NCBI RefSeq assembly: GCF_016903815.1
Contig: NZ_CP069974.1
Length of the DNA stretch: 64,000 bases
Source of the DNA: Escherichia coli
GTDB taxonomy: Bacteria > Pseudomonadota > Gammaproteobacteria > Enterobacterales > Enterobacteriaceae
Strand: one strand, 5' to 3'
The translations under genes were made by a program, and so were the position numbers. Under the pieces are notes generated by a model that was not told the origin of the DNA, searched no databases, and was given only the letters and a program-made list of their open reading frames with translations. Position 1 is the first letter of the stretch. Every line of letters begins with the position of its first letter. Shown one piece after another: positions 4,810 through 60,970 of the stretch.

Positions 4810-5150
4810 TTTCTGCCCTCCTCTGCCGGAATAAATTCCACCTTCAGGAAGCGATCGCCGGGAACGGCGCTCACCCGTGCCGGGACCTGATCAATGCCGA
4901 GGCGCTGGCAGAGCACACCGTTCTGGTCAAAGTAAATACGGCTGTCCAGCGCTTTCTGCATCTCCGGGATACTGCCCTGCACGAGGATAATTTTGCTCTC
5001 CAGTGTGGGCGGCGTCTGGCGTTTCATCCAGGCCACCTGCGCCGGATCATCGCCATTGATGAAATACAGCGTCTGGTTAAAAGGAACATACTGCAGCGGA
5101 TTCATCACTTCACCCTGACGGGCAAACACCCGCCCTTCGTTATCCCGGAT
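4806..5150 (-). pseudogene. traW: traW 3' fragment (last 114 codons)
   Basis: IRDNEGRVFARQGEVMNPLQYVPFNQTLYFINGDD...FIPAEEGRK matches the TraW C-terminus and has no own start. The upstream part of track ORF 4806-5384 is out-of-frame traC sequence. Confidence 0.85.
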
Positions 5151-7467
5151 ACAGCTGGTTGTATTTTGCGAACTCCTTCGCACTCTGTTTGAGGATAATT
5201 TTGTAGGAGGAGTTACCCCATGCCGCACGGGCCGCACTGGAGGCCTTGTCAGAGTCAAAGTCGACGATGTTCTGTGTGATGGTGATATAAGCACCGGTAT
5301 GACGACGGGCGGTACGGTAACCTTTCTCAATAAACTCACCGACCTTGTAATTTTTGAAGTCCAGCAGACGCCAGCCTTCATCAATGACGTTCAGTTTCTT
5401 GAGGTTACGCGGCGTGCGGTACATCCTGTTCTCGATGTAGATAATCAGGGAGAACATCACCGCAACCAGCAGTGACGGACGGTCTTCCAGTCCGCCCAGC
5501 TCCAGCACCACCATTTTTGCGTCATCCCGCAGGGACGGCTCATCAGAGTTAAAATACTGACCGTAAGTGCCGTTGGCAGTGTACTGGTCAAGCAGCACAA
5601 TCATTTCGTCCAGACGGCTGCGGATAGTCGGTGACCCGGCATACTGCTCGCTGTCACTGGCGTTTTTCAGGAAATCCACCACGTCATCAATACGTGCCCT
5701 GTTCTCTTTGGCCAGCCAGGAGGCCCTGACCGCCTGCAGCAGCAGACCTTCATGCACTTCATCCAGGTTACCGTTGGGGCTGGCCATCACTGACAACTGG
5801 TCACGGACACGCTCCGCTGACTGGTCGATATCGGTGATATTCGCAAACGGGTTAAAACGCAGGGTTTCACCGTCCAGATATACGCCACCCATGTTCTCAC
5901 ACAGGGACTTGTAGCCATCCCCCATGTCGAACACCACGGCAAAGCCCCCGGAGTCCAGCACGCTGCGGATAAGGGGCTGTATCAGTCCGGTTTTACCGGC
6001 CCCGGAGGTGCCACAGACCGCCATGTTGTAGTTGGTGTTATTCATCCCCCGGAAGAAAATATCGATAAACGCCAGCTGGTTACGGTAGGTGGGTGCCAGC
6101 AGACCTGCCGGTGTCAGGGGGTTATCCGCCACTAACGGCATCAGGTTGGCAACATTAAAGCTCTCTGCGCGCTGAACCACACCGGCCTCTTTCAGCTGTT
6201 TAAACAGCCCTTTCCCGGCCATAAAGGGCAGGCAGGTCAGGAAATTGCGCATGTGGTTAAAGCGCGGTGAAATCAGCTCAAAACCGTTTTTACGGAAGCT
6301 GTTCAGGATGTCCTGCTCCACTTCCAGTGCCGTTTCATTATTGTCCTTGCAGAAGGCTGTGATGTTGAGGAAGTAGGACACGACAGAAGACTGACCGGAG
6401 CCCAGCCGCTGACGCAGTTCCCCCCACTCCTTCGCCTCTTTCTCCACGGACGGAAACCATTTGGCATAGGAGGTCTTCGACTTTTTCTCCAGGTCCATGT
6501 ACTTCAGGTTGGCTTCGCTGTGGGTTTTCACCTGGTCTTCCACCACCAGAGTCAGCGTCAGGATGAACGGACAGGAGATGGACAGTTCCGGGTTCAGCAG
6601 GTTGCTGTAGTTGTCGGCCATATTCCACAGGAAGGCGATTTCCGGGTTACGGGCCAGATGGAAATTCAGGATGCGGGCCGTGCTGTTCCTGCCGTTCTCA
6701 CGCAGGCCCAGCGTCAGGTAATCAGCCCGGACTTTCAGGTCAAAACTGTCCTCCACACACTGATAATTCAGATCAGAATACGGGTCCAGCTGACGTCTTT
6801 TCGGGTACAGGGAGTCCGGGTTATGATTAATCATCTCCCCGACAATATCGATAAAGGCCTGTGCATCCACCGTCTGTGTGGCGATACTGGCCCCCTGTAA
6901 CGACGCCCGGATGATTTTCACCAGGTTTTCCATTTCCAGAATGTCAGCCCGGCTTTTTTTCTTCGAGGGAGAACAGTACGAGAAGAATACCCGGTAATGG
7001 CGCAGGGTCAGGGGCAGATTCATCCCCTCCGGCAGCGGAAACTGTGTCGCTGCCGCGTTCATATAATAGGCACGGGTAATGGCGTTAAACCGTTCAGCCT
7101 GTTCACCGGACCAGGAGAACTCACGCAGCCCGTATTCAATTCTGTCACCAACAAGCTGGCTGGACTTCAGATGGATGCAGAACGGCACTCCGCGTGGCAG
7201 TTTGGTGCGCAGCATGTGGTCGAGCGCCTCCACAATGGACTCATTCGCCCCATTGATGGGAATGGCTTCCAGCATAAAGCCCATCGTGGTGTCATTCATG
7301 AACAGACCGGACTCCTGGTTGTAATCACGGTACGGCAGCAGACGGCTGAACTGCGGGAAGCTCATTTCGCCCAGAACTTCATTGGCCTTTGCGGATTCGT
7401 CAGGCAGTTTCAGTGCTGTGACGAGGGAGTTAACCGCCTGAGTGACGGCCTCAAGTGGGTTATTCAC
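5140..7467 (-). pseudogene. traC: traC (VirB4-type ATPase) truncated at the 3' end by fusion to traW
   Basis: 775-aa ORF with Walker A GTSGAGKT, colinear with F TraC up to ...AKYNQLYP, then Gly-stop at the junction. About 100 C-terminal residues are missing (875 aa in F, from memory). Confidence 0.85.
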
Positions 7468-9383: not shown

Positions 9384-10803
9384 CCCCGCCCTGCGGGTTC
9401 TTGTCTCCGGACATAAACTGCTGCGGATTCAGATTGCCCAGCTGCTTCAGCATCTGGTCGGTGTTAAAACCGTTCAGGTGGCTTTCTGCCGAGGGAGGAT
9501 TCGGCACAGGGCTTTCCGGGTTACCCTCTTCCGCTGTACTCTGTGACTGCTCCAGCGCCATTTCCTCCACGGTTTTCAGCTGGAAGCCGTCCTGGAACAC
9601 CACTGTCACTTCGTTGCCCGCACCAATCGGTATCACCGGGTGATACTGTTCGGCACGTTTGATGTAGTAGTCACTGAGCGTCTGTGCGGCTTTCGATGCG
9701 CCGCCACCGATACCCATTTTAAGGACATCGCCGGCCCCGTAAGCGGCTGTGGCACCCAGCCCGACAGCCGGCTGGGAGGCGCGCTCCATTCCCTGACCGA
9801 TACCGTCAACAAATCCCGCGCCCCATGCCCAGCCGAGGATTTTGCCGTTACGCATCACCACTTCGCCCTTGATACCGTTTTTACCCCGGAAGCTGACATG
9901 CCCCTTAATCGGCATATCAATGGTTTTGCCATTCTTCAGGCAGCTGATATTACGGGTGCGAACAATAGCACGTTCACTGGAGACATCCCCCCAGGCTTCC
10001 AGCCCCACAAAACATCCCGTTGCGTCATACGTCTTGCTGTTCGGCATTTCCACCAGACCGGTGATACGCAGCTGCATCGGCACCGTGGATTCATTACCGG
10101 TGACTGAGGCATTGGCATCCGCCCCTTCAATCAGCATGGCTTTCGCAAAACTTCCTGACGGAATGTACGGCAGCGATGGTCCCTGTTTTCCCTCATTACG
10201 GGTAAACACCTTACGCTGTATCCGGTTAGGCACCGGCACAGACTGGTACATCACCTGTGGTGGTGGCGTGACACCATTCCCGGGATAAAACGCCGTCGGC
10301 GGTGGAACAGCAACGCTGCCCTGCGGCGGGAAGGATACGGGGGTGTTTCCCGGCTGTGGTTCGCCTTCCGGCCCGGGCGGTGAGGCTGGCGTCTGCGGTA
10401 CAGGCTCACCGGTCGCCGTGACGGGATTAGCACCCAGGGCTTTTACCTGCTCTGCCAGGGCGGCATTGTCCTGTCCCAGTTTTTCAATACGACGCTGGTC
10501 ATCACCGCGCTGTTTGTTCAGGACATCCAGTTCACGACGGATTTCCTCATACTGCTTCTGCATCTGCGCTGCCGTCACCTGCATCTCTGTGGTGGCATGC
10601 TGACGCACCTTGTCATCAAAGGTCGTATCCACCACACCGGTCATATCCGGCACAGGCTCCTGTTCAGCCACGGTTTCCCCGTTACCGGACATGTCCACAT
10701 CAGACAGATACAGTGCCCCACCAATCGCGGAGGCTGTACCGACAACCACAATCCCCAGCCACAGGTACTGCTTGCGTTTCACAATGGTGTTGATACTGGC
10801 CAT
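9352..10803 (-). CDS. traB: TraB (VirB10-like)
   Basis: 483 aa with an N-terminal TM segment, coiled coil, Pro-rich linker and a VirB10-like C-terminal domain. Position is between traK and traP. Confidence 0.9.
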   Translation of the reverse strand: MASINTIVKRKQYLWLGIVVVGTASAIGGALYLSDVDMSGNGETVAEQEPVPDMTGVVDTTFDDKVRQHATTEMQVTAAQMQKQYEEIRRELDVLNKQRGDDQRRIEKLGQDNAALAEQVKALGANPVTATGEPVPQTPASPPGPEGEPQPGNTPVSFPPQGSVAVPPPTAFYPGNGVTPPPQVMYQSVPVPNRIQRKVFTRNEGKQGPSLPYIPSGSFAKAMLIEGADANASVTGNESTVPMQLRITGLVEMPNSKTYDATGCFVGLEAWGDVSSERAIVRTRNISCLKNGKTIDMPIKGHVSFRGKNGIKGEVVMRNGKILGWAWGAGFVDGIGQGMERASQPAVGLGATAAYGAGDVLKMGIGGGASKAAQTLSDYYIKRAEQYHPVIPIGAGNEVTVVFQDGFQLKTVEEMALEQSQSTAEEGNPESPVPNPPSAESHLNGFNTDQMLKQLGNLNPQQFMSGDKNPQGGDAGKEGGNGG

Positions 10804-47510: not shown

Positions 47511-48317
47511 TCAGGATAATTGTTTCAGCATCGCAACCGCATCAGACTCCGGCATCGCAAACTGCACCCGGTGCCGGGCAGCCACATCCAGCGCAAAAAC
47601 CTTCGTGTAGACTTCCGTTGAACTGATGGACTTATGTCCCATCAGGCTTTGCAGAACTTTCAGCGGTATACCGGCATACAGCATGTGCATCGCATAGGAA
47701 TGGCGGAACGTATGTGGTGTGACCGGAACAGAGAACGTCACACCGTCAGCAGCAGCGGCGGCAACCGCCTCCCCAATCCAGGTCCTGACCGTTCTGTCCG
47801 TCACTTCCCAGATCCGCGCTTTCTCTGTCCTTCCTGTGCGACGGTTACGCCGCTCCATGGGTATTTTCAGTGTTGCCACCATCGTCTGCAGCTGGCTGAC
47901 GTACCAGGAGTCAGAGAGCGGAACCAGCCGGTGAGTCTGCTGACCGGCGGGCATTCTCCCCGCCGTCCTGGCAGCTTTTTCGGTCCGTTGTTTCAGGGTC
48001 GCAAGCTGCACAAACGGATACGGAGGCGCAAGCGAAAAATCCCCCCGCGTCAGCGCCAGTGCTTCATTAATGCGTGCTCCGGTGTTCCACAGTGTGGCCA
48101 GCAGCATCTTGCGGTGCAGATCCGGGACGTAATGGAGCAGGGCACTCACTTCCGGAGCCAGCAGATATTTTGGCAGTTCATCATGGACCATCGACATCTG
48201 GCGAAGTGCCAGAGCTGCCGGATAATCAATGGCAACAGGCAGCGATGCAGGCTGCCCGGCAGAATACACTGCCGGTACCATGACTGCAGACTGGCTGTGT
48301 ATAACGGAGCCTGACAT
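47511..48317 (-). CDS. resD: ResD tyrosine site-specific recombinase (F D protein)
   Basis: 268 aa with the C-terminal catalytic region ...HTFRHSYAMHMLYAGIPLKVLQSLMGHKSISSTEVYTKV. Confidence 0.9.
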   Translation of the reverse strand: MSGSVIHSQSAVMVPAVYSAGQPASLPVAIDYPAALALRQMSMVHDELPKYLLAPEVSALLHYVPDLHRKMLLATLWNTGARINEALALTRGDFSLAPPYPFVQLATLKQRTEKAARTAGRMPAGQQTHRLVPLSDSWYVSQLQTMVATLKIPMERRNRRTGRTEKARIWEVTDRTVRTWIGEAVAAAAADGVTFSVPVTPHTFRHSYAMHMLYAGIPLKVLQSLMGHKSISSTEVYTKVFALDVAARHRVQFAMPESDAVAMLKQLS

Positions 48318-48843
<526 letters not shown>

Positions 48844-49234
48844 AGCACACCTCTTTTTGACATACTTCGGGTATACATATCAGTATATATTCTTATGCCG
48901 CAAAAATCAGCGCGCAAATACGCATACTGCTATCTGGCTTTTAGTAAGCCTTATGTATTTTACCTTTCGTTATGTTAACCAATAAAAATTAAAATCTGAC
49001 TTATAAAAACAAAGCGTAATTACCGCATTCCCGTTTCGTATGGATCCGACTTTATTTGAATAAACGACTTTCCGGAAGTGTACAACGCTGAGAAAATCAT
49101 CATATCGCTGTTTTCCGCCCCTGCACGGCGCATCACAGGTCAGGGAAATAACACAACATATAGTGTCATCAGCAGCTGAATCCGGCACCACATGTTGTGC
49201 TTACAGGAAGTGGCGTTGTGTGGGGGGGAGAGGA

Positions 49235-49281
49235 AGATCCGTAACTGCCGGAAACCGGATCTCAGAAGAGAAAAAGAAGAG
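49235..49281 (+). repeat. hairpin-plus-polypurine junction repeat, copy 1
   Basis: AGATCCG-N14-CGGATCT (49235-49262), then the purine run AGAAGAGAAAAAGAAGAG (49264-49281). Another purine run (GGGGGGGAGAGGAAG) lies just upstream. Confidence 0.7.
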
Positions 49282-49476
49282 TTGTTGCAAGATAAGCACA
49301 AAAAATGGTGGTTTGTTGAGATATGGTAATTATTGCTCAGTGGGCAAAATTCAGAACAGAGTTAGCCTGAAATTGCAAAAAACAGGCCAGAAAAACTTTT
49401 TTCAGCTCATTTTCATCAACCGGCCTTAAAGGCTGCTTCGGATTTCCTAAATACAGTTTTACATAAGGAACATCGT

Positions 49477-49674
49477 ATGACTGTATTTCTCATGGCCGTT
49501 TTCTATGGCCTCTTAAAAACTGGCTCTCTCATTGCCCTACTTGTTGATGCCTATAAAGGCTGGACCTTGTTCTGGAAGAACTATGATCGACTCCCCCATA
49601 TCTACCGTTCGCAATGGCGATATCAGCGACGCTTCATTCTCAAAAGAATCTGGAAACGCATCAGAACCGGCTAA
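49477..49674 (+). CDS. possible small membrane protein (65 aa)
   Basis: RBS-like AAGGAA 7 nt before the ATG. One hydrophobic helix MTVFLMAVFYGLLKTGSLIALLV, then a W/R/K-rich tail. Convergent with the HTH gene, overlapping it by 4 nt. Confidence 0.35.
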   Translation: MTVFLMAVFYGLLKTGSLIALLVDAYKGWTLFWKNYDRLPHIYRSQWRYQRRFILKRIWKRIRTG

Positions 49675-49955
49675 GCCGGTTCTTCCAGCAGCATCCCCAA
49701 CCCGGCCAGCCAGCACAGACAGCACCAGGTGGTGAACACCATTCTGGTCTCGCCGGATTTCCACTTACGGATGGTGCGCTCGTCCACATCTAGCCGGTTG
49801 GCCAGCTGGATATCTGTGAGCGGGATCAGCGCCCGGACCACGCTGACTTCACTGGCTGAAGGTGCCATCCAGCTCTCGCCCGAGCACAGTGTTTCAGGGT
49901 TAAATTTCTCTAGTTCTATCAGCCCCTGAACCTGACGGGCATTTTCTGCCTTCAT
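49671..49955 (-). CDS. XRE/HigA-like helix-turn-helix protein (94 aa)
   Basis: ...SASEVSVVRALIPLTDIQLANRLDVDERTIRKWKSGETRMVFTTW..LAGL fits the antitoxin/regulator HTH pattern. It lies 20 nt after the DUF3800 gene. Confidence 0.6.
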   Translation of the reverse strand: MKAENARQVQGLIELEKFNPETLCSGESWMAPSASEVSVVRALIPLTDIQLANRLDVDERTIRKWKSGETRMVFTTWCCLCWLAGLGMLLEEPA

Positions 49956-49974
49956 ATGCGGTTAACCTTTCTGA

Positions 49975-51108
49975 TCAGGATTGCGACACACTTTGTACAC
50001 GATGGGCAAGACGGCGCGTTTCTTCCACGGCCCTGAGTTCATTTGCTTTTTCTATCATTTCTGCGGTTGGTTCAGAAAGTTTTTCAAAAAACTCCTTAAA
50101 CCTCTTTGCAACTGACTGCAGAGAAACACTGTCAGTTCTCGCTGTTTTAAGATTGGTGTAGACGAGGCGGGAAAGGGGTTTGGTCAGTTCCTTCCGTTCC
50201 ATGTATCGTTTGAAGATCCAGAGATAAATATCAACCAGTTCCAGCCCGGCACTCATCGTTCCCGACTGGAAGACAAGCGGTTTTGCTGGCATGTTCTTCA
50301 TATCCATGACAGGCAAACCCGGCCCCAGTGCCCACGGCTGTTCGCGGATCTGGTAGTAAAACTCGTTCAACTCCCGCTGGGTGGTGTTGAACTGTGACTG
50401 CTGGTCAACAATGATATCTGCTTTCCGGTTCGGTGCCCCCAGACGAGAGCAGATCCCGTGCAAAACGGACTGAAAACCAATCATATTGGGCATGATCTGC
50501 AACTTTTCCTTATTGGTTTTGCAGTTGTACCCCAGCTCATCAAAGTTGACCATCGCCCAAGATAGGGCATCGGTAATGAGTTCAACTGAACGGGCATCAC
50601 CCAGAGAGTGAACGCGCTGAAGCAGCACTCCACAAACCTCACTGAATAATGAGCAAGAACGTTCATCATGAGCCTCAAGACGGGCACGCCACGCTTTTTC
50701 AGCCAGCTCATCATCAAACAGATTAGACAGATTCAGCAGCAGGGGATAGCGCAGAGGGGTCCAGTAGGCACTCCAGGGCACAACCGGATTCAGTCCCTGA
50801 TCAAACACCTGGTCGAAGAACGAAATAATGGCGTGATCGCGCTTAACCACCTGCCAGATATCAAACCGTATCCGGTGATTTTTCTGCAGGACCAGCAGCG
50901 TATCCACAACTTCTGAAAGGCGGTGCACGCCCAGTTCCGCAGCGTGCAGGCGCTCCACGCCCAGAGTTTTGCGTAATGCGGCAAGATCCGCTTCAGCAAC
51001 CTTATCTAGGTCAGCCTCTGAGGACAGTACTCCGTAGGAGAGGATTGGCTGGGTTTTGTCAAAAAGGTTTCGGCCAGTCTGGCCTGTTTCATCCACATAA
51101 AAGTGCAT
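49975..51108 (-). CDS. DUF3800-like protein (377 aa)
   Basis: The N-terminus MHFYVDETGQTG matches the [FY]xDE[ST]G signature recalled for DUF3800. The rest is not recognised. Confidence 0.55.
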   Translation of the reverse strand: MHFYVDETGQTGRNLFDKTQPILSYGVLSSEADLDKVAEADLAALRKTLGVERLHAAELGVHRLSEVVDTLLVLQKNHRIRFDIWQVVKRDHAIISFFDQVFDQGLNPVVPWSAYWTPLRYPLLLNLSNLFDDELAEKAWRARLEAHDERSCSLFSEVCGVLLQRVHSLGDARSVELITDALSWAMVNFDELGYNCKTNKEKLQIMPNMIGFQSVLHGICSRLGAPNRKADIIVDQQSQFNTTQRELNEFYYQIREQPWALGPGLPVMDMKNMPAKPLVFQSGTMSAGLELVDIYLWIFKRYMERKELTKPLSRLVYTNLKTARTDSVSLQSVAKRFKEFFEKLSEPTAEMIEKANELRAVEETRRLAHRVQSVSQS

Positions 51109-51190
51109 TCAGATATCCTTTTCAAGGCAGGAGGAAAAGAAACGGCATAATTCAAATCAATGTAAAACCTTCCTGTTGCCGGCTGCAAGT

Positions 51191-51236
51191 GATCCTCTTA
51201 AATGAGTTTTCGGATCTAAGGAAGAGAGAAGAGGGA
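51191..51236 (+). repeat. hairpin-plus-polypurine junction repeat, copy 2
   Basis: GATCC-N16-GGATC (51191-51216), then AAGGAAGAGAGAAGAGGGA (51218-51236). The next approx. 40 nt resemble those after copy 1 (TTRTTGYA.GA...GCACAAAAA). Confidence 0.7.
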
Positions 51237-51370
51237 TTATTGTATGAATGGCACAAAAAGCGACGGATTGTTGCGGTGAATAGATTATTGCTTAGGAAGC
51301 AAAATTTATAGTAATTGATAACTCTAATGCAATTAAACAGCGACCCCATCAGGGGTCACCGTAATTTTGA

Positions 51371-54300
51371 TCAGCGATGTTCAAACCGCGCCACTGGAGT
51401 ATCAGTGATTTCCATCTCTATTTCCCAGAGCGTTTTCATCACACCTTCAAGTGGATCGTCGCTGCTGCGGTAGAAGGTATTGAAAAGGGTTCCATCCGGA
51501 TACCTGAACAGCCTGAGTTCACCAAAGGATTCAGCACTGACCATAAGCGAAAACTCCTGTTCGGAATTGAGGACAAGGTAAATAAGACAGTTATTGATCC
51601 TGAAGGGCAGAGAGCGGCTACCCCTGGCCGATACATCAACATGTATGCTAAACGCGTCATGCCTTTCCGGCTGATAGACCAGTTCCCTCAGTTCCTCGCT
51701 GAAGCGGGAACCATAGATCACCAGAATGTAGTTATTCTGATCAGCGGACCGTTGCGCGACTTCCATTAACAGCGTTTCGAGGTTATTGACCTCAATCGTT
51801 AATTTAGCCTGTGACTGCCACAGTACATAATGCAGTCTGCGGAGAATATTTCTGTTCACTTCTGATACCGAAGGGAAATCTCCGTAGTCAGTCTGATTAA
51901 GCTCTCTGGCAACATACTCTTTGGAAACACCAACAGGAATATATATCGCCAGCCAGTTGCGATCACATTCTGAATTTTGAGTAAACGTGAAGTATTTAAG
52001 CAGAACATCTTCAGACAATGCCCCAGGAAGTTCATTTGTAAGACGAGCATCAGTGTTTCTCAGTCGAGCCTGGTCTACTTCAGCAGCAACGATATCTGCC
52101 GTTTTACTACGACTGAATACATCTATGTATTTATCCAGAACATCATTAAAGAACACCACATTCGTTGCATAATCCGCTTCTGAAATGATATAACCTTCAT
52201 AGGGAACTGAAGGGTCTCGTTTCAGTCGTTTAAGAATAGAAATTATTCTGTCTTTACTGGAATAGGAAAACACCCCTCCAGCCAGGGCTTCATTAACACG
52301 CTGTGTAACCTGCTCCGCAGGCCTTGCGAGCTTTATAGCCAGCAAGGCAAACGCCCCGTAGAGACTCCCTAAATCTTCATATTCCCCTGTATACATACGC
52401 CCGGGAATGTAAGGCCTTTCATTATATGAGTTCATAACCTCAATGGTTTCTGATAACCCGCTGTACCAGCTTGTATTCGTATGCAGATTGCAGTGCTCAA
52501 TTCTCAGTATCATGTCAATGATATCGACAGAACGTCTGAATGCAGGCGTCAGCGTGTCATGTGTATCTCTATCTTCATATAATTCAGACATAATGAGATG
52601 ATTCACAAGATCGGCTAAGTCTATATTTTTTTGCGATTCAAAATGAGCAATAAGATACCCTGCCATTAACAACCGCAAATCGGATAAGGCATTTGCAAAC
52701 ATAATGGACAAAGCGGCATCTTTTTTATACTTGCTGCCCCTGAGTAACATATTCCACTGCGGTTCTGTCTCCTTCAGGGACAGATAATCCGGAGTCAGGA
52801 AGAAACTGTGCCAGCGGTACTCTTCCTCCCAGTAACGTGTAAACCGGCTCTGATTAAACCAGAGGCAGAGAACGTCGTGAGCATATCGCACGGAAGAGGC
52901 ATTATCGGCAACCACTGACGGAATAAGAAGCCTGGCGGTATTATGCAGATGATACATCAGGCGGCCAGTAGAATCTTCACTCCCGGGTTTGCCAGTGATC
53001 GTGGTCATACTCCAGCCTTCCCACAGTCCGATATACCCGCGGATAAGGGCCTGGTGAGTCAGCTCCTGGCTGGCCGAGAGGGGGCCCCCCAGTCCCGCTT
53101 TCCACTCGTTTAACACATGCCACACCCTGAAAAGCGAGAGTAAAAACTGTCTGAAATCGGTAAAACACGTGCTCTGTGTTTTTCTGTACACACGCAATGG
53201 AATGAGCATCGATTCACGGAAATATTCGCCTGAATATTCCGTTGATTTTACGGATTCACGAAAAAACTTTCTCAATTCATAATGGAATGAATCGCTGAAA
53301 GTATGGCTAAAACCTGATTCTTTTACTTCATCCAGATAATTTTTATCGACCTCGTAATTGTAACTTCTTTTGATAGAGGTATAGGTATCTGTTAATCGTT
53401 CAATCCCTGTTCTGAAGACGCTAATATTTTTATCGTTAAGCGCATCGTAAGCCTCACCAAAGAAATCAAAAGTAATATCATCCAGATCCCTTTTGTTCTC
53501 AGGGCGCCCTGTTACAATACAACGACGCAATAACCACCGCCACAATCCTGAAACAGGCTTGACATTTCTCGATGACAATAAAGTCAGTTCACCAGAACGA
53601 ACACCAAAGGAGGGCAGAATGATAATTTCCGCATCCTGCCCATCTACCGCCTCTAGCCTTCTCAGTAGGAATAAAAAAGGCCTTATATAAATATCAGTAA
53701 CAACATCACCTTTACTGATATTAGATTTAACATGAAGCATATCGTCTTTCTCAGAAATTGAGTAAGGCAGTATTTTAATATTACCGAGGTAATTTTGACC
53801 TACATGACCCCCCGGGTAACGCAGCCACGCCTGAATATATGCTTTTTGAATGTAGTCATCCACTATCTGAGATAAAAAAAACTTATTCATTAGTCGATCG
53901 CGTTTGCTCTCATCCAGGACATTCAGACTGGAGACGAAGAACCAGATAGACAGAATAATATTGAAAAGCATCCACACAAAAGCTGTTACGGCAAAAGAAG
54001 TATTAAGATATCCGTCACCTATAGATAACGTCATACCGCCCAGCACGACAAATGCAGCCAGTGAAAGACCACTCAGGCCCGCAAACATATATCCGGAATG
54101 AAGTTGATACGCGGACTGAATATGGATCCTTGCTGATTTCTTTTGAAATAAAACACTTATAAGCCCCACAACCAGCGGAAATACAATACCGATTATAGTC
54201 AACTGGCTACCCAGTAAATTAGACATCCAATCTGAAAGCTTGGTAATGCCCTTAAAATGCTGCACAGCGAAAGGTAGCAATACAGGGCGAAAATATTCGA

Positions 54301-54490
54301 CCACGCCAACAGCCCCGAAGGCTGCGGACCATAGAACCAGCATAGCCCGGACGTAATGGGTGGAGCAGGAAACAAGTATTCTCTCCACCGGGTTCCAGCG
54401 AAGTTTTTTGTAATCCCGGTTCGACTTCAGGCTCCGTCGGAGTTCAGCTCTCACCTGCCATGAGACACTTTTCAGAAGTTTTCCAAACAT
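51371..54490 (-). CDS. large membrane-anchored protein of unknown function (1039 aa)
   Basis: About five hydrophobic helices in the first approx. 190 residues, followed by an approx. 850-aa soluble region with no motif I recognise. AT-rich codon usage. Hairpin GTGACCCCTGATGGGGTCGC follows the stop. Confidence 0.7.
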   Translation of the reverse strand: MFGKLLKSVSWQVRAELRRSLKSNRDYKKLRWNPVERILVSCSTHYVRAMLVLWSAAFGAVGVVEYFRPVLLPFAVQHFKGITKLSDWMSNLLGSQLTIIGIVFPLVVGLISVLFQKKSARIHIQSAYQLHSGYMFAGLSGLSLAAFVVLGGMTLSIGDGYLNTSFAVTAFVWMLFNIILSIWFFVSSLNVLDESKRDRLMNKFFLSQIVDDYIQKAYIQAWLRYPGGHVGQNYLGNIKILPYSISEKDDMLHVKSNISKGDVVTDIYIRPFLFLLRRLEAVDGQDAEIIILPSFGVRSGELTLLSSRNVKPVSGLWRWLLRRCIVTGRPENKRDLDDITFDFFGEAYDALNDKNISVFRTGIERLTDTYTSIKRSYNYEVDKNYLDEVKESGFSHTFSDSFHYELRKFFRESVKSTEYSGEYFRESMLIPLRVYRKTQSTCFTDFRQFLLSLFRVWHVLNEWKAGLGGPLSASQELTHQALIRGYIGLWEGWSMTTITGKPGSEDSTGRLMYHLHNTARLLIPSVVADNASSVRYAHDVLCLWFNQSRFTRYWEEEYRWHSFFLTPDYLSLKETEPQWNMLLRGSKYKKDAALSIMFANALSDLRLLMAGYLIAHFESQKNIDLADLVNHLIMSELYEDRDTHDTLTPAFRRSVDIIDMILRIEHCNLHTNTSWYSGLSETIEVMNSYNERPYIPGRMYTGEYEDLGSLYGAFALLAIKLARPAEQVTQRVNEALAGGVFSYSSKDRIISILKRLKRDPSVPYEGYIISEADYATNVVFFNDVLDKYIDVFSRSKTADIVAAEVDQARLRNTDARLTNELPGALSEDVLLKYFTFTQNSECDRNWLAIYIPVGVSKEYVARELNQTDYGDFPSVSEVNRNILRRLHYVLWQSQAKLTIEVNNLETLLMEVAQRSADQNNYILVIYGSRFSEELRELVYQPERHDAFSIHVDVSARGSRSLPFRINNCLIYLVLNSEQEFSLMVSAESFGELRLFRYPDGTLFNTFYRSSDDPLEGVMKTLWEIEMEITDTPVARFEHR

Positions 54491-54600
54491 AGATATCCTG
54501 CGTATTACATAAGAAATTTTATGAATAATAAGCGGTAGGAACCTTTTTTTCTCTGGAAAATGTCACCCGATACCCTTCATACAGGCTTTGTCATCCTAAA

Positions 54601-54652
54601 ATCCGGTTTAACCTTTTTTCGGATCTCCGATAAAAAAGAAAGAAATAGAGAT
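54601..54652 (+). repeat. hairpin-plus-polypurine junction repeat, copy 3
   Basis: ATCCG-N14-CGGAT (54601-54624) overlaps the palindrome TTTTTTCGGATCTCCGATAAAAAA, then the A/G-rich run AAAAAGAAAGAAATAGAG. Confidence 0.6.
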
Positions 54653-54796
54653 ATGCATAAACATATGCCTGGCATCTACATATGCTACCGCTATACATAT
54701 GCCACACATCTGCCTATACTAAACATATGCACACACCCGGTGCTTTGAATATTCCGGATATGTTTCACATATCCATATGCTCGGGAGAGAAAGAAC

Positions 54797-55027
54797 ATGA
54801 GAACCGTATCGATATTTAAAAATGGCAACAACCGCGCCATCCGTCTGCCTCGTGATCTGGATTTTGAGGGGGTGAGCGAGCTCGAGATCGTCCGGGAAGG
54901 GGACAGCATCATCCTGCGCCCCGTCCGGCCAACCTGGGGATCATTCCTAGAGTACGAAAAAGCCGATCCAGATTTTATGGCGGAGCGCGAGGATGTTGTC
55001 AGCGACGAAGGGCGATTTAACCTGTGA
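54797..55027 (+). CDS. vapB: VapB/VagC antitoxin (AbrB/SpoVT fold)
   Basis: 76 aa MRTVSIFKNGNNRAIRLPRDLDFEGVSELEIVREGDSIILRPV.... Confidence 0.9.
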   Translation: MRTVSIFKNGNNRAIRLPRDLDFEGVSELEIVREGDSIILRPVRPTWGSFLEYEKADPDFMAEREDVVSDEGRFNL

Positions 55028-55440
55028 ACAAGACTTATATGCTTGATACCTGTATCTGCTCGTTCATCATGCGTGAACAGCCAGAAGCCGTCCTGAAGCG
55101 TCTGGAGCAGGCGGTGCTACGCGGCCACCGTATAGTGGTCTCGGCCATCACCTACTCTGAAATGCGCTTCGGGGCTACCGGCCCAAAGGCCTCACCACGT
55201 CACGTCCAACTGGTCGATGAATTCTGCGCCCGCCTCGATGCCATCCTGCCCTGGGATCGCGCCGCAGTAGACGCCACCACGAAGATTAAAGTGGCACTGC
55301 GGCTGGCCGGGACGCCGATCGGCCCGAACGACACGGCGATTGCCGGGCACGCCATCGCCGCCGGGGCGATACTGGTAACGAATAATACAAGAGAATTTGA
55401 GCGAGTGCCTGACCTGGTGCTGGAAGACTGGGTGAAGTAA
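55024..55440 (+). CDS. vapC: VapC/VagD PIN-domain toxin
   Basis: 138 aa (GTG start overlapping the vapB stop) ...YMLDTCICSFIMRE...TNNTREFERVPDL with PIN acidic residues. Confidence 0.9.
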   Translation: MNKTYMLDTCICSFIMREQPEAVLKRLEQAVLRGHRIVVSAITYSEMRFGATGPKASPRHVQLVDEFCARLDAILPWDRAAVDATTKIKVALRLAGTPIGPNDTAIAGHAIAAGAILVTNNTREFERVPDLVLEDWVK

Positions 55441-55477
55441 GACACTCTTTTCAAAGTCAGGAGATAAGGGCACCAAG

Positions 55478-55502
55478 AAACAGCCCGTATACGGGCTGTT
55501 TT
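55478..55502. terminator. bidirectional intrinsic terminator
   Basis: AAACAGCCCGTATACGGGCTGTTTT lies between the convergent vapC and the ATPase gene. Confidence 0.8.
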
Positions 55503-55601
55503 AACAGATATCTACAGTAAGCGGTCCTAAACTGTAGGGTATCTTCGAAGATCAGACTATCAGGGAGCTAAAGCCTATCTTCCGGCGGCAAAAACAGTGG
55601 C

Positions 55602-57740
55602 TCAAGCGATACGGGCAACCGAGCTCTGGTTTGCTGCCGGTGGCAGGGCGATGAGCTTGTCACATTCCATAATCACGTACTCCGGGATGAGATCGAATCT
55701 GGACGGATCTAGTTGACAGATGAACTCATTTTCAATGTGGTACGTTTCGTTAACGAATTTTCGTATTACCGGATGGTCCTGATCCAGTTCCAGTAAACGG
55801 AATACCTGCAGTTTTTCATAGCCGTTACGACAGCGACGGTACAGGTTTTTTATTTCATCTGGGCTGCTGACGAGAGCCTGAAGTCGCGGGTAATCAAAAC
55901 TGTCCACATACTCCCGGATATCCCGCAAGGCCTGCTGAATTTTCTCAGGAGCCATTTTGGGATAGCCCGAGCCCGCAGCGGCAGGCTCGCGATAATCCAG
56001 CGGGGCGACGCGTCGATGGAATAGATTGGATAGAAGCTGATAAGCATCACCACGTTCGTCAACGATTTCAAAGTAGCGACGAAGATAGATGAGCTTAATG
56101 ATCTCCTCACAGTCTGCTGACGCGGTGATGGATTTGCAGATCTGCATGAATGTCATGATATCGCCGTCGTTAACAGGTAATTCTTCTATGACTCCAGCAG
56201 ACAGGCGCAGGCAGGAGGCGGTCACCTGATTACTGAACAACCTTCTGACTGACTTCAGCGTGTCAATCACAGGCTCCACGTCATGCGTCAGCATAAGTAC
56301 AGTCCGGTTCTTCAGGCATTCACCACTTGCACGTCTGAACAGCATTTCAAGAATGGCAAACTTCTTGTTTTTATCAAAAGAAGATATGGGATCATCAAGG
56401 ATAATCAGTCCCGGGTTTTTTGACAGGCATTCATACATGAATAACACAATCGCAAAGGCGTTCCGTTCTCCATAGCTGAGATGCTGGCTACCGCCGCTGA
56501 CGTACCCGTCAAAATCTATGTGTCGTAGCCTGAGTTTTCTCTGCTCTCCCTCGCCGGCTATATCCACCCTGTATTTATAGCCTGCATAAGTGAGGAAATT
56601 ATTGATGTTTGTTTTGTGCTGTGCGATCAGCCGGATCATGCTGTCCCGGTGCCGGTTAATTTTTCCCTGCAGCGGTCCGGCAAGGTTTATCAGGTCCATA
56701 AGGGCCGCGTTCAGTCTGTCGGTGATCCCCTGCATGAGTTCGGATTGCAGATCAGGGAAGAACTGCAGGTCAATCAACCTGGCAGTGAGCACCTCCCGAA
56801 CGTTCTGCTGTTCCTGCAGGCTGAAAACATTCAGGCCTCTCAGCGCAGTGAGTTTCTCTGTCAGCGTATCGGTCTGGCGTTTCAACGCCACTAGGTACTC
56901 GATATGTTCGGCTTCCGGACCGTTCTGAAGCATAGTAATGGCCAGAAGGCGTTCTCTGGCGCTCTCCGTCAGGTAATTACCGAGGTTTTCCACCAGTCTG
57001 ATGATAGCGGTCAGGTTTTTAATGGTGGATTTATCGTATTCCTCTCTGACTTGGCGAATTTGTGCTTCCTTTCCCGTGATATCACCGGTACAGAACGGAC
57101 AGCAGCCATCCGAAAGGGGCGAAAACTCGAGTCCCTTTGTCTGCCAGTCAATCCATTCCACGCGGCGTTCACTGCGGATGTAGGGTTGATAGTTCTCAAG
57201 ACCAGCCGGAATGTGGTGTATTTTATTTCCGCCTGACAGACCTCTCATGCCGGTTGAAGAACGTGAAATCCCGGAACTGGTTGATTTGAAAGCATTACTG
57301 AGTTCCTGTAGATGGTCTATCAGAGAGTTCAGCTCAGTGTGATCCGTGAAAACAGCCCGGATCTTTTGCGTCATTTCTTCTATTTCACGCTCTCTTTCCG
57401 CATGGGCTTGATTGCGGATAAGAATATTAAAGCTGTCACTGATGAGCTCGTCCGGTTGGAACGTAAACTGACTGACGTACTCCTCGTTGAAGCACATCAC
57501 GTCCCCAATCCCGTCAGCACCGATGACAATGGGCCCGGTGCTATCGGGGTTTTCTCCGCGCAGCCGGAAGGGCATCAGTGCCTGTAGTCCCTGAATGTCG
57601 TCCCGCGCCGCACAGCTTATGGCCCGTGACAGCGTACTTTTTCCAGTACCATTTGGCGCAAACTTAATGTTCAGTTTATCGGCAGTGAGGGTGATATGTG
57701 CTCGTACGATGTTATTGCAGTGGCGTATTTCAATGTCCAT
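55602..57740 (-). CDS. AAA_13/RloC-like ABC-type ATPase with coiled-coil zinc hook (712 aa)
   Basis: Walker A APNGTGKST, signature LSYGERNA, Walker B LIILDDP and H-loop LTHD are split by a long helical insert containing CCPFC. The approx. 170-aa C-terminal domain is of unknown function. Confidence 0.7.
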   Translation of the reverse strand: MDIEIRHCNNIVRAHITLTADKLNIKFAPNGTGKSTLSRAISCAARDDIQGLQALMPFRLRGENPDSTGPIVIGADGIGDVMCFNEEYVSQFTFQPDELISDSFNILIRNQAHAEREREIEEMTQKIRAVFTDHTELNSLIDHLQELSNAFKSTSSGISRSSTGMRGLSGGNKIHHIPAGLENYQPYIRSERRVEWIDWQTKGLEFSPLSDGCCPFCTGDITGKEAQIRQVREEYDKSTIKNLTAIIRLVENLGNYLTESARERLLAITMLQNGPEAEHIEYLVALKRQTDTLTEKLTALRGLNVFSLQEQQNVREVLTARLIDLQFFPDLQSELMQGITDRLNAALMDLINLAGPLQGKINRHRDSMIRLIAQHKTNINNFLTYAGYKYRVDIAGEGEQRKLRLRHIDFDGYVSGGSQHLSYGERNAFAIVLFMYECLSKNPGLIILDDPISSFDKNKKFAILEMLFRRASGECLKNRTVLMLTHDVEPVIDTLKSVRRLFSNQVTASCLRLSAGVIEELPVNDGDIMTFMQICKSITASADCEEIIKLIYLRRYFEIVDERGDAYQLLSNLFHRRVAPLDYREPAAAGSGYPKMAPEKIQQALRDIREYVDSFDYPRLQALVSSPDEIKNLYRRCRNGYEKLQVFRLLELDQDHPVIRKFVNETYHIENEFICQLDPSRFDLIPEYVIMECDKLIALPPAANQSSVARIA

Positions 57741-57888
57741 TTATCTGTCCTTTGCCAGTTATTCCGGGGGGATTCATATCCTGCCGCAAAATGTGCCCGC
57801 ATGCTGTGATGCAGATACATAATACATTTCGTTTATACCATTGCTTACACCTCTCCGAGATGTTCATATCAGAAACAAAGATTAGGTC

Positions 57889-57934
57889 GATCCGACTTTT
57901 ACTTTTTTCGGATCTCTGGAGAGGGGAAGAAGGA
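57889..57934 (+). repeat. hairpin-plus-polypurine junction repeat, copy 4
   Basis: GATCCGA-N12-TCGGATC (57889-57914), then GGAGAGGGGAAGAAGGA (57918-57934). Confidence 0.7.
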
Positions 57935-58204
57935 TTTGTGCTGATGATGCAATACTAATGATATATTTTGAACTTAATTGCATTATTGCTTATCTGGCAT
58001 TAATAACTGAAATACTTTGCATAATTATCAATGAAAGAACGAGGCTCATATTTCCCATGTAAATTATATGCCCTTGCAGAGAGCGAGACGGTAGTGAACT
58101 TGCGGCACTAATAATAAACTGTACCGACTCTTCCCGGGCACTGGAATGTTCAGATGTACGACAGAGCCCCGCGCCTTTTGCAATAAATAATTAAAGGACT
58201 GAAC

Positions 58205-59200
58205 ATGGCGACCACAGTAATAGCTGCCTTTAACGAATTTATGAAAGATACCGTGAATCTCAAAAAGGCAGATACCGATGACGCGCGTGCAAGTCGCGAC
58301 TGGCTTATCGGTAAGATGAATGATTTTGAGAAGGACGATAAATTTCCGGTGAGTTTTCCAGCGATCCATATTGCCTTTGGCTCCTTTGCCAGAAGAACCA
58401 AAATCCGTCCGCTTGATGATATCGATCTGATGTTTGGCTTAACCGGGCAAGGTGCCACCTATACCATCCTGAGTGACCGGATAACTGTAACCTCCTCCGG
58501 AGAGGGGTCACGTCTGCACAGTTACCGCCATTCCGGAGCTGACACCGTCTGCTCCGTCAGAATTCTGAATGCCTTTAAAAACCGCCTGCAGGACATTGCC
58601 CAGTACGCCCAGGCTGATATCAGGCGTAACCAGGAAGCTGTCACGCTGAAACTGGTCAGCAAGGACTGGAATTTTGACATCGTCCCCTGCTTTATTACCA
58701 GCGAAGATGCCTTTGGACGGACTTACTACCTGATCCCCGATGGCAACGGCCACTGGAAGTTTACCGACCCCCGTAAAGACAGGGACAGAGTCACTACTAT
58801 CAATGTGCAGAATAACGGCAATGTGCTCAATGTCATCAGAGCAGTCAAATACTGGCAGCGGCGACCGACGATGCCATCCATGAGTTCCTACCTGCTGGAA
58901 ACGCTGATTCTGGACTATTACGCTGGCAGGACATCCTGCTCATCGTTTGTTGACATGGAGCTGGAAGCGCTTTTCCGCCACCTTGGTCAATCCGTGCGGT
59001 ACTCTGTCAACGATCCCAAAGGCATACAGGGTGATATCAACTCACTTTCAGCCGAGGCACGTAAGGCGATATCGGACAGATGTTATCTCGATGCGCAAAA
59101 GGTATCGGAGGCGAGATGGTTTGAAAATAATAAAGAGTATGAAAAATCCATCAATAAATGGCGCGATGTGTTCGGGCCATTCTTTCCTGTTTACGGGTGA
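58205..59200 (+). CDS. SMODS/CD-NTase-like nucleotidyltransferase (CBASS cyclase)
   Basis: 331 aa with the pol-beta NTase signature FGSFARRTKIRPLDDIDLMF and third carboxylate NFDIVPCF. Confidence 0.75.
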   Translation: MATTVIAAFNEFMKDTVNLKKADTDDARASRDWLIGKMNDFEKDDKFPVSFPAIHIAFGSFARRTKIRPLDDIDLMFGLTGQGATYTILSDRITVTSSGEGSRLHSYRHSGADTVCSVRILNAFKNRLQDIAQYAQADIRRNQEAVTLKLVSKDWNFDIVPCFITSEDAFGRTYYLIPDGNGHWKFTDPRKDRDRVTTINVQNNGNVLNVIRAVKYWQRRPTMPSMSSYLLETLILDYYAGRTSCSSFVDMELEALFRHLGQSVRYSVNDPKGIQGDINSLSAEARKAISDRCYLDAQKVSEARWFENNKEYEKSINKWRDVFGPFFPVYG

Positions 59201-59203
59201 ATC

Positions 59204-60136
59204 ATGAATGCCATTTACACAAACCAGTCGACCAGAGAAAACATGGATTTACTGTATGCGCAGGCCCGTGTCTACGACAGGGTAAAAAACTGGAACAGAC
59301 TGAATTTTCTCTTCAGCATCATCGTACCGCTCCTGCTTTCTTTCGTTACCGTATACAACCGGAGCCGGGAATTTGTCGATTCAGAGTTGTTGTCTTCGCT
59401 GTTGGGGTTATATGGACTCCTGGTGCTTACCTTTAACATTGTTATCAGTGGACACATCTCGGCTCTGCGCAGGAAGGCAGCCTCAATCCAGGAAATGTAC
59501 GACTGCCGGGTACTTGGCATCCGGCGTAATGAACTGAAGGTGGAGGAGATCCCACGGGATGACATCATCCGGGAAGCTGCATATTTTAGAGACAGCCCGG
59601 AAAAAGCACGAAAGCGATTTGGCGAAGAGGGGTGGTACGTCAGTAAGGTGTATGACGCGCCGCAGGCCGTAATGGCGCTCCTTTGCCACGGAAAAAATCT
59701 CGGCTGGGACAAATCGCTCAGGGAGGTTCTGCACGTATTTTATCTTTCCGCTTTTATTGTCTCGCCTGTCGCGATGCTTGTTTACGGCATCGTCATGAAA
59801 TCCGGGCTGAATGAGATCCTCTTCTATGTGGTGTTCACACTGCCGGTCATCCGCTATTTCTTGCTTCAGTTTCTGGATAATCGCAGCAGTATGAAAAGAA
59901 GCGAGAAGCTGAAAAAGTACGTTGAGAAGGAATTATCCGGCATAAGGGTGTCCGGAAGGGCAGAAGAAGAGCAACTGGCTTATACGCTCCGGAATATCCA
60001 AGATGAGATGTTTACCTACCGGGCCTCATGTCCGCCCGTACCCAACGGTATTCAGCTGATAATGAAGCCCAAAAATGAACGAATTTATGTTGATTACTTT
60101 GAAACAAATCTGAAGGAGCTGCACCTTCAGAAGTAA
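59204..60136 (+). CDS. four-TM effector (S-4TM-like) of the CBASS operon
   Basis: 310 aa starting 4 nt after the cyclase stop. Two pairs of hydrophobic helices (about 33-51 and 62-85; 185-208 and 214-233) are separated by a soluble segment. Confidence 0.65.
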   Translation: MNAIYTNQSTRENMDLLYAQARVYDRVKNWNRLNFLFSIIVPLLLSFVTVYNRSREFVDSELLSSLLGLYGLLVLTFNIVISGHISALRRKAASIQEMYDCRVLGIRRNELKVEEIPRDDIIREAAYFRDSPEKARKRFGEEGWYVSKVYDAPQAVMALLCHGKNLGWDKSLREVLHVFYLSAFIVSPVAMLVYGIVMKSGLNEILFYVVFTLPVIRYFLLQFLDNRSSMKRSEKLKKYVEKELSGIRVSGRAEEEQLAYTLRNIQDEMFTYRASCPPVPNGIQLIMKPKNERIYVDYFETNLKELHLQK

Positions 60137-60272
60137 TCCCTCCTTAGCTCCGGTGTAGGATTTACGTATGCCGGAGCACATCCGATAAACAATTCTTGGT
60201 TGCCTGAGTGTCAGCGTAAACCCATAGTCACCTTCGCCTCAGACGGTTAGTAACACAGGTAATGACTCCAAC

Positions 60273-60776
60273 TTACTGATAGTGTTTTATGTTCAGATAA
60301 TGCCCGATGACTTTGTCATGCAGCTCCACCGATTTTGAGAACGACAGCGACTTCCGTCCCAGCCGTGCCAGGTGCTGCCTCAGATTCAGGTTATGCCGCT
60401 CAATTCGCTGAGTGTAACGCTTGCTGATTACGTGCAGCTTTCCTTTCAGGCGGGATTCATACAGCGGCCAGCCATCCGTCATCCATATCACCACGTCAAA
60501 GGGTGACAGCAGGCTCATAAGACGCCCCAGCGTCGCCATAGTGCGTTCACCGAATACGTGCGCAACAACCGTCTTCCGGAGCCTGTCATACGCGTAAAAC
60601 AGCCAGCGCTGGCGCGATTTAGCCCCGACGTATCCCCACTGTTCGTCCATTTCCGCGCAGACGATGACGTCACTGCCCGGCTGTATGCGCGAGGTTACCG
60701 ACTGCAGCCTGAGTTTTTTAAGTGACGTAAAATCGTGTTGAGGCCAACGCCCATAATGCGGGCTGTTGCCCGGCAT
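60273..60776 (-). CDS. insB: IS1 InsB
   Basis: 167 aa ...[58 protein letters not shown].... Confidence 0.92.
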
Positions 60777-60970
60777 CCAACGCCATTCATGGCCATATCA
60801 ATGATTTTCTGGTGCGTACCGGGTTGAGAAGCGGTGTAAGTGAACTGCAGTTGCCATGTTTTACGGCAGTGAGAGCAGAGATAGCGCTGATGTCCGGCAG
60901 TGCTTTTGCCGTTACGCACCACCCCGTCAGTAGCTGAACAGGAGGGACAGCTGATAGAAACAGAAGCCAC
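60695..60970 (-). CDS. insA: IS1 InsA
   Basis: 91 aa [88 protein letters not shown]. Confidence 0.92.

Follow-up and report, generated by a model that had tools for sequence, protein, structure and literature searches.

rfsF-type core repeats at the boundaries of defense modules in an IncF plasmid island of Escherichia coli

Introduction

ResD, the D protein of the F plasmid, is a tyrosine recombinase that acts at a site named rfsF. A 28-bp pattern for this site, AGATCCGNAANNNNNNNNTTNCGGATCT, is given by Xu et al. 2021 (PMC8299605), who take the name from O'Connor, Kilbane & Malamy 1986, and their experiments show fusion and resolution at rfsF between pOX38 and a Klebsiella virulence plasmid; plasmids with several sites are explicitly left unexplained there. 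Papers on IncI1 and IncR plasmids report switches of gene sets at rfsF, and the paper on pEC958, a close relative of the plasmid considered here, places rfsF beside oriV-1, ccdAB and resD. Neither the site nor its recombinase is new, and the same holds for the part that the site plays in plasmid fusion. Here we analyze a stretch of 64,000 nucleotides (nt) of an Escherichia coli IncF plasmid (contig NZ_CP069974.1; hereafter the window), in which four copies of a short repeat lie in direct orientation on the + strand within 8.7 kb and delimit separate modules of mostly anti-phage genes. We propose, with a probability of roughly 0.85, that the four repeats are rfsF-type core sites of the plasmid's own ResD and that the island which they punctuate was assembled by recombination at these cores.

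Other systems offer parallels of differing closeness. In the pdif modules of Acinetobacter, short 28-bp tyrosine recombinase cores bound accessory modules that recur in varied plasmid contexts, much as they do here. Integrons likewise have a recombinase gene beside a primary site (attI), followed by modules that are separated by secondary sites (attC). In conjugative plasmids of the IncN type, the CUP repeats are intergenic elements repeated upstream of accessory genes and bound by a plasmid regulator (Delver & Belogurov 1997).

Results

Four variant rfsF cores in direct repeat

The 28-mers begin at positions 49235, 51190, 54599 and 57888, all on the + strand, in agreement with an earlier note on this DNA that had described four hairpin-plus-polypurine repeats from the letters alone. 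They read best as sites of 11-6-11 geometry, with a left arm AGATCCGNAAC, a 6-bp center and a right arm TTTNCGGATCT. Copy 1 (49235..49262), the core adjoining the plasmid backbone, is AGATCCGTAAC TGCCGG AAACCGGATCT, with a canonical left and a variant right arm. Copies 2 (51190..51217; TGATCCTCTTA AATGAG TTTTCGGATCT), 3 (54599..54626; AAATCCGGTTT AACCTT TTTTCGGATCT) and 4 (57888..57915; CGATCCGACTT TTACTT TTTTCGGATCT) are hybrid cores that share the exact right arm and have weaker left arms. The distance between the half-sites, as read from the sequence, is a constant 22 bp, and no two of the four centers are alike. The 11-mer TTTTCGGATCT occurs exactly three times in the window, always on the + strand and within 6.7 kb, against about 0.03 occurrences expected by chance, and the observed count was reached in 0 of 100 shuffles. 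Even the weak left arms retain a GATCC/ATCCG core above chance: at five or more independent sites, at least 5 of the 9 positions match, an outcome with P of about 0.05 at any one site. A conserved small open reading frame (ORF) across the repeats was also considered as a candidate and rejected, the reading frames differing between copies when read by hand.

The identity of the repeats follows from comparison with F, whose rfsF, AGATCCGTAAC TTGGGG TTTTCGGATCT, lies beside ccdA at the position homologous to copy 1. The arms AGATCCG...CGGATCT with their 28-bp spacing are common to both; the right 7-mer is exact in 4/4 copies, the left 7-mer matches at 7/7, 5/7, 6/7 and 6/7 bases in copies 1 to 4, and the 14-bp separation is identical. 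The position and flank typical of rfsF, beside ccdA and the oriV1 region, are found at copy 1 and not at copies 2 to 4. Also common to the two plasmids is the recombinase: resD (47511..48317, − strand; Pfam Phage_integrase, E = 6.8e-18) specifies a protein identical to that of F over 268/268 amino acids (aa), which is annotated as site-specific integrase WP_000016982.1 both in identical plasmids and in F. The gene lies to the left of copy 1 at a distance of 918 nt, and the interval is occupied by the backbone genes ccdB and ccdA (48318..48843, − strand; from the annotation of NZ_CP024863 and the ORF list).

Module junctions within the cores

As the earlier note had it, the repeats stand at the boundaries between modules, separating a 65-aa ORF with genes for a helix-turn-helix (HTH) protein and a DUF3800 protein (module 1), a 1039-aa protein gene (module 2), vapBC with an ATPase gene (module 3) and a cyclic oligonucleotide-based antiphage signaling system (CBASS; module 4). 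The junctions were mapped by megablast with queries spanning each copy, taking the endpoints of partial matches. At copy 4, plasmids that have the CBASS without the ATPase begin to match at 57899 and those with the ATPase and no CBASS stop at 57898. At copy 2, plasmids with only the DUF3800 module stop at 51201 and those with only the 1039-aa gene begin at 51207, and at copy 3 plasmids with vapBC and no module 2 begin at 54601-54610. Breakpoints fall inside the core at all four copies, and those that resolve to the base separate nt 11 from nt 12.

Hybrid cores in other plasmids place the exchange point from a second direction. In pEC743_1 (locus L006), ccdA leads directly to the CBASS via AGATCCGTAAC joined to TTACTT TTTTCGGATCT, that is, the left half of copy 1 with the right half of copy 4; this combination, present in L006 and in a pESI-like plasmid (L105), is an exact match to the published rfsF pattern. 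After the ATPase gene in pCFS3246-1 (L007) and in L107, CGATCCGACTT is joined to AGCCGG AAACCGGATCT, the left half of copy 4 with another right half. Altogether, four families of right halves each occur with at least two left arms and an unchanged center: AACCTT with vapBC has three (copy 3, L104 and L105), and two each are found for AATGAG with flank b (copy 2 and L007), AGCCGG with flank c (L007/L107 and L002) and TTACTT with the CBASS (copy 4, and the backbone arm in L006 and L105). Two left arms, in turn, each occur with two or more right halves, the backbone arm AGATCCGTAAC being joined to TGCCGG in copy 1, to TTACTT in L006 and L105 and to TTGGGG in F. The 6-bp center stays with the right half in every hybrid. 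Because the centers stay with the right halves while the left arms change, and because the backbone arm takes several right halves, the junction is placed between nt 11 and 12. Among the options raised in the earlier note, that of recombination or junction sites is the one these data favor, and the recurrence at the borders of other cargo that it had asked for is found: rfsF cores join varied modules in IncF, IncR, IncI and pESI-like plasmids.

We propose that copy 1, with its canonical left arm and conserved left flank, is the working backbone site and that copies 2 to 4 are hybrids, in each of which the weak, GATCC-containing left end of one module would have been joined to the exact rfsF right half of an earlier site, which brought along its center, its purine tract and its downstream module. 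Recombination at the cores would then have assembled the island, with strand exchange at the left edge of the center, at nt 11/12, and for that reason every center would have remained with its right half. One of the two strand cuts of a tyrosine recombinase with a 6-bp overlap would fall at this point, and the one-sided pattern suggests exchange at that edge only, tolerating unlike centers. Both the catalysis of these events by ResD and the use of a single strand-exchange point are what we infer. Since the centers are unlike, the left arms of copies 2 to 4 weak and their left flank absent, ResD-mediated deletion between the copies should be rare, which would allow four direct repeats to coexist with an intact resD.

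Several observations weigh against this proposal. All four copies deviate from the published 28-bp pattern (with matches at 16, 14, 15 and 15 of the 18 specified bases in copies 1 to 4, respectively), and we accordingly file them as variant or hybrid rfsF sites, not as canonical ones. The start at 51207 stems from a different center in the Klebsiella locus L102, so that the junction at copy 2 is placed only within the center. In L103, the DUF3800 module ends in the left arm of copy 2 but joins DNA that has no right arm; hence, not every junction is a site-by-site event. The right half of copy 1 recurs as AGCCGG... beside a different flank family (L007, L107 and L002), a recurrence that one crossover at nt 11/12 leaves unexplained. 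Finally, the circle junction predicted for joint excision of modules 1 to 3 (the end of module 3 joined to the start of module 1) was not found in 72,556 plasmids.

The last point equally suits a view in which copies 2 to 4 are scars without activity, the remains of old rfsF events or of cointegration followed by deletions, whether mediated by insertion sequences (ISs) or otherwise, so that the island is static and copy 1 alone works, for multimer resolution. The weakened left arms of copies 2 to 4, their want of the conserved left flank and the four unlike centers all fit such scars. The island is also stably inherited, at least 80% of its 9.4 kb being carried by 168 plasmids, with 25 among the matches listed having full coverage at 100% identity, and IS1, IS2, IS26 and IS66 are likewise seen to remodel these regions. 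Against it, the vapBC-ATPase pair, the 1039-aa gene, the CBASS and pif recur with other neighbors in IncF, IncR, IncI and pESI-like plasmids and are always joined at the same core position, which requires repeated events and not a single old one. Further, module 1 is circularly permuted in L002, as expected from a circular intermediate or from unequal exchange, and the left arms have kept their GATCC/ATCCG core beyond chance. We allow this account of inert scars an appreciable chance, though one short of even.

Some further cores may be recorded here. In p47EC (L108), the match to the right half of copy 1 begins exactly at core nt 12 (at about 4990-5001); the sequence to the left of this breakpoint is unrelated and has no recognizable left arm, and an IS3-family transposase gene is found about 230 nt upstream of it. 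In the Klebsiella michiganensis plasmid pRHBSTW-00909_3 (L106), two right-type halves, each with a right-type flank, meet head to head in the core at 6958-6985; the flank is that of the CBASS on one strand and that of family c on the opposite one, as an inversion between oppositely oriented sites would give. The right half of copy 1, xGCCGG AAACCGGATCT (49246-49262), is shared with a widespread site that follows the PDC-S06 ATPase gene (L007 8889-8916, L107, and L002 at about 9741-9768), and the flanks directly after the ATCT of such sites differ in family. The reverse complement of its arm, AGATCCGGTTT, resembles the left arms of copy 3 and of the second site of F; this likeness suggests either a recurrent second type of arm or past inversions.

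Canonical sites, their recombinase and their arrays

When one genome per species was scanned for the published rfsF pattern, 93 loci were obtained, about 38 of them in Enterobacterales; the rest look like chance palindromes of the terminator type, with no left flank, purine tract or resD. What genuine sites share is the flank tACATnTTGTGT..GCCGCTGCGCGCCGG on their left, a purine tract to their right and a resD homolog. The homolog was found in 27 loci, in 27/27 of them on the left and on the opposite strand, and at a distance of 1.1-3.9 kb wherever the gene was recovered full length. The 43 canonical sites have C at position 11 and T at position 18; their arm sequence is conserved and their center freely variable, a pattern that fits recognition by a protein.

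The same pattern bears on the suggestion in the earlier note that the repeats are structured 5' leaders or hairpins, and more generally on a role for a folded nucleic acid, either as an RNA leader or terminator or as a single-stranded DNA (ssDNA) signal of the ssi or Frpo kind in conjugation or replication. Each copy does contain an inverted repeat of 5-7 bp, a terminator scan gave one weak match, at 57884, and the region enters the recipient as ssDNA during F conjugation. Nevertheless, the ssDNA folding of copies 1 to 4 stays within the range of shuffled sequences (z = -1.66, +0.51, -0.46 and -0.84), the proposed hairpin is the minimum-energy fold in copy 4 only and its loops would be 12-16 nt long. 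The left-arm substitutions of copies 2 to 4 have no compensating change in the right arm, it is the arms and not the centers that are conserved over the canonical sites, and a permissive Rfam search of 44-64 kb, up to E = 1, returned no relevant match. We consider a folded structure very improbable and set that suggestion aside.

Another possibility is that the host XerC/XerD, and not ResD, act at the repeats, these being dif-like sites comparable to those of the pdif modules. The 28 bp readable as 11-6-11 have the same geometry, and the sites bound discrete modules that include toxin-antitoxin genes, as pdif sites do. In pdif modules, though, the orientation of the sites alternates, and all of those in the window point the same way, in an array that is polar from a backbone site beside the recombinase gene. 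Identity to E. coli dif is 7-10 of 28 bases in either orientation, which is the chance level; the resD homolog keeps to a fixed side in all informative loci; and experiments have defined this very core as the fusion site of F (PMC8299605). We consider use by the host XerC/XerD in place of the plasmid ResD very improbable.

Arrays of such sites are not confined to the window. F has a second site 4.8 kb from the first, AGTTCCGGTTT TACCTT TTTTCGGATCT, and the two bracket pifC, pifA and two more genes. Two or three sites are also present in the IncI-gamma/K plasmid pSa64-96 (L002), the IncR plasmid pNTU107224-2 (L102), pCFS3246-1, the pESI-like plasmid, the K. michiganensis IncFII plasmid and locus L092. 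In F, L102, L002, L007, L092 and L105, the arrays have the same polarity: a canonical or nearly canonical site lies nearest resD, and the downstream sites combine a weak left arm with an exact right arm and a purine tract.

Flanks of the cores

To the left of copy 1 lies a conserved flank (49043..49234, + strand) that starts at a half-site, GGATCCGACTT; the half-copy noticed earlier at 49043 is present and forms the left edge of a region of about 190 bp. F and pEC743_1 have kept this region, and so has a pESI-like Salmonella plasmid, even though its backbone farther left is unrelated. Its part nearest the core, tACATnTTGTGT..GCCGCTGCGCGCCGG, is the one conserved over the 43 canonical sites. 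This flank is absent to the left of copies 2 to 4, where the left flanks are module specific. The left flank of copy 1 aligns with F and pEC743_1 from ccdA to the core. Over the 90 nt or so directly left of copy 1 (49140-49234), the window has many differences from F and pEC743_1 and a partial match to the pESI-like plasmid; farther left than 49140, it is nearly identical to F. Because the one stretch departs from F while the other agrees with it, the site-proximal left flank is a small mosaic patch.

To the right, on the side away from resD, each core is followed by a purine tract, as the earlier note had observed; the tract is about 17 nt long. That of copy 1 (49263..49281, + strand) has a purine fraction of 0.9, determined for the identical sequence in L001, and over the 20 nt 3' of the core the fraction is 0.80-0.95 in copies 2 to 4. 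The tract runs on from the core in copy 2, is short in copy 3 (to about 54652) and spans 57916-57934 in copy 4. Since the 43 canonical sites have it too (purine frequency of 0.7-1.0 at +3 to +19), the polypurine run is a general cargo-side companion of rfsF. Both the purine tract and the left flank may be accessory elements of the site.

Beyond the purine tract, there are several unrelated flank families, each tied to one downstream module: flanks of family a lead to vapBC, those of family b to the 65-aa ORF, those of family c to two genes of about 258 and 591 nt, and those of a fourth family to pif. Family b at copy 1 (49282..49476, + strand) contains ATTRTTGC three times together with an inverted GCAAAAT, lies upstream of the 65-aa ORF and leads to the same ORF in L002 and L003. 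A remnant of it follows copy 2 (to about 51310), and the flank of copy 4 extends to about 58010. Copies 1, 2 and 4 can be aligned over about 100-130 nt, and copy 3 has the core and a short A/G run only; the similarity of copies 1 and 2 that was noted earlier is therefore present, but it reaches farther than the 40-60 nt given for it and includes copy 4. This similarity of about 100 nt is family b and is not universal to the site. As a universal part of the site, the 100-nt unit was rejected: a hidden Markov model of the unit, of the kind the earlier note had called for, aligns at full length at only about nine of the canonical sites in Enterobacterales, the others having the core and the purine tract. 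What had been taken for one unit of hairpin, polypurine run and 40-60 nt is hence divided by the data into a core, a general purine tract and a module-specific flank.

At least four copies of an ATATGC-containing repeat of about 17-24 nt lie upstream of vapB (54658-54781 and 55037-55060), and comparable motifs, CATATCCATATG, occur after the purine tract at many other sites with a family a right flank. These repeats are probably an operator array for VapB.

The flanks also bear on the remaining option of the earlier note, a shared operator, and on the wider question of whether the repeats are mainly a regulatory unit, an operator or promoter bound by ResD or by the 94-aa HTH protein for co-regulation of the modules, with the boundary position reflecting no more than intergenic control regions. 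All four copies are intergenic and upstream of a gene on at least one strand, and copies 1, 2 and 4 share the flank with the three direct ATTRTTGC motifs and the inverted GCAAAAT. In F, the right flank of rfsF runs into pifC, and the title of Lane et al. 1986 describes the D protein as both a transcription repressor and a resolvase. On the other hand, a promoter scan gave no sigma-70-like site in any of the four units, no co-oriented gene lies downstream of copy 2 or of the copy in L004, and the shared flank is just one of three or more unrelated families attached to the same core. Moreover, regulation alone leaves the breakpoints at one core position unexplained. We regard a mainly regulatory unit as an unlikely explanation of the repeats; regulation and recombination at them are compatible and could coexist.

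Modules and backbone of the island

The 9.4-kb region is 100% identical to that in many IncF (FIA/FIB/FII) E. coli plasmids. In one annotated relative that is 100% identical, NZ_CP024863, it lies between the RepFIA backbone (sopAB, repE, resD and ccdBA) and IS1, which is followed by a type I restriction-modification system. Module 1 (49263..51200) comprises the 65-aa ORF on the + strand and, on the − strand, the genes for the 94-aa HTH protein and the DUF3800 protein (Pfam DUF3800). Other plasmids have module 1 and lack module 2, and their alignments stop at window position 51201. Module 2 (51201..54609) consists of the gene for the 1039-aa protein (51371-54490, − strand), for which no match was obtained in Pfam or PADLOC. 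The gene is also found in Klebsiella plasmids at 86-91% nucleotide identity, and in the IncR plasmid L102 module 2 comes first after a canonical site and has a different right neighbor. It behaves as a self-contained module between two rfsF-type sites and is a candidate for an uncharacterized defense gene.

Module 3 (54610..57898) combines vapBC on the + strand with a convergent gene for a 712-aa AAA_13/ABC-type ATPase (55602-57740, − strand). The latter is a near full-length match to the candidate PADLOC system PDC-S06 (E = 3e-286), with weaker matches to LmuB, AriA, AbiLi and PrrC, and it always accompanies vapBC in the plasmids examined; the neighbors of the pair vary in L007, L104, L105 and L107. 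Module 4 (57899..60250, + strand) is a type I CBASS of a CD-NTase and an S-4TM effector (Pfam SMODS and S_4TM; PADLOC cyclase and 4TM effector), the right end of which is truncated by IS1 (about 60250-60970). In L106, where the CBASS module is intact, it ends in a site of its own, weak in the left arm and exact in the right, and a TrlF-family ATPase gene comes next; a fifth site has probably been lost from the window. Across plasmids, the cargo between sites includes pifA, the F gene for exclusion of phage T7, type I CBASS, the PDC-S06 ATPase with vapBC, the DUF3800 and HTH proteins, DUF4238 with a TIR-like protein, a HEPN nuclease and the unannotated 1039-aa protein.

Discussion

Compared with rfsF and ResD of F, a documented point of plasmid fusion and gene-set switching, the locus described here differs in having its four direct sites within so short a span, three of them weak on the left and devoid of the left flank. 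The resemblance to integrons goes beyond layout to a single junction position and an order of modules compatible with insertion at the first position. It ends with the absence from the window of an IntI-type integrase, a common promoter and a folded attC structure, for which the attC hairpin test was negative, and with modules that are multigenic, lie in both orientations and have their own control regions. The earlier note had not recognized the repeats as attC, REP or an IS end; its judgment on attC holds, while the element does prove to be a known and named site, rfsF. The CUP repeats differ in being promoter-containing repeats of 230-450 bp in the leading region and not recombinase cores. 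As a candidate identity they were rejected, since blastn of the four units against R46 gave only chance matches (E of 0.06 or more) under conditions in which the CUP repeats of R46 itself were readily detected.

These parallels permit a bolder reading, which we offer as speculation and think somewhat unlikely: that ResD and rfsF, beyond multimer resolution and the fusion of plasmids, form a polar platform for gene capture that builds defense islands on Enterobacterales plasmids. The canonical site would be the counterpart of attI, and each module would carry a half-weak site, with a weak left arm, an exact right arm and a purine tract, and would enter next to the backbone. A single exchange point at nt 11/12 would let mismatched centers be tolerated and leave the finished array stable.

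In the searchable literature, we found no description of a four-site array of defense modules, of its polarity, of a general purine tract or of a single junction position, and on rfsF arrays or defense cassettes nothing beyond the papers on the fusion site and on gene-set switches. We regard the feature as real and as largely explained by a known system, to which it adds a moderately interesting and testable extension.

In Enterobacterales, resistance and virulence genes reside mainly on IncF, IncR, IncI and pESI-like plasmids, and the assembly of the accessory regions of these plasmids is mostly credited to insertion sequences and homologous recombination. If cores of the ResD/rfsF system also mark or still mediate the joining of whole defense modules, a 28-bp motif would predict the boundaries of plasmid defense islands, and uncharacterized blocks between sites, such as the 1039-aa protein gene, the DUF3800-HTH pair and the gene pair of about 258 and 591 nt, would become candidate defense genes. 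The fixed position of the junction would amount to a testable statement on the first cut made by ResD, and the multi-site plasmids left unexplained by Xu et al. 2021 would be accounted for.

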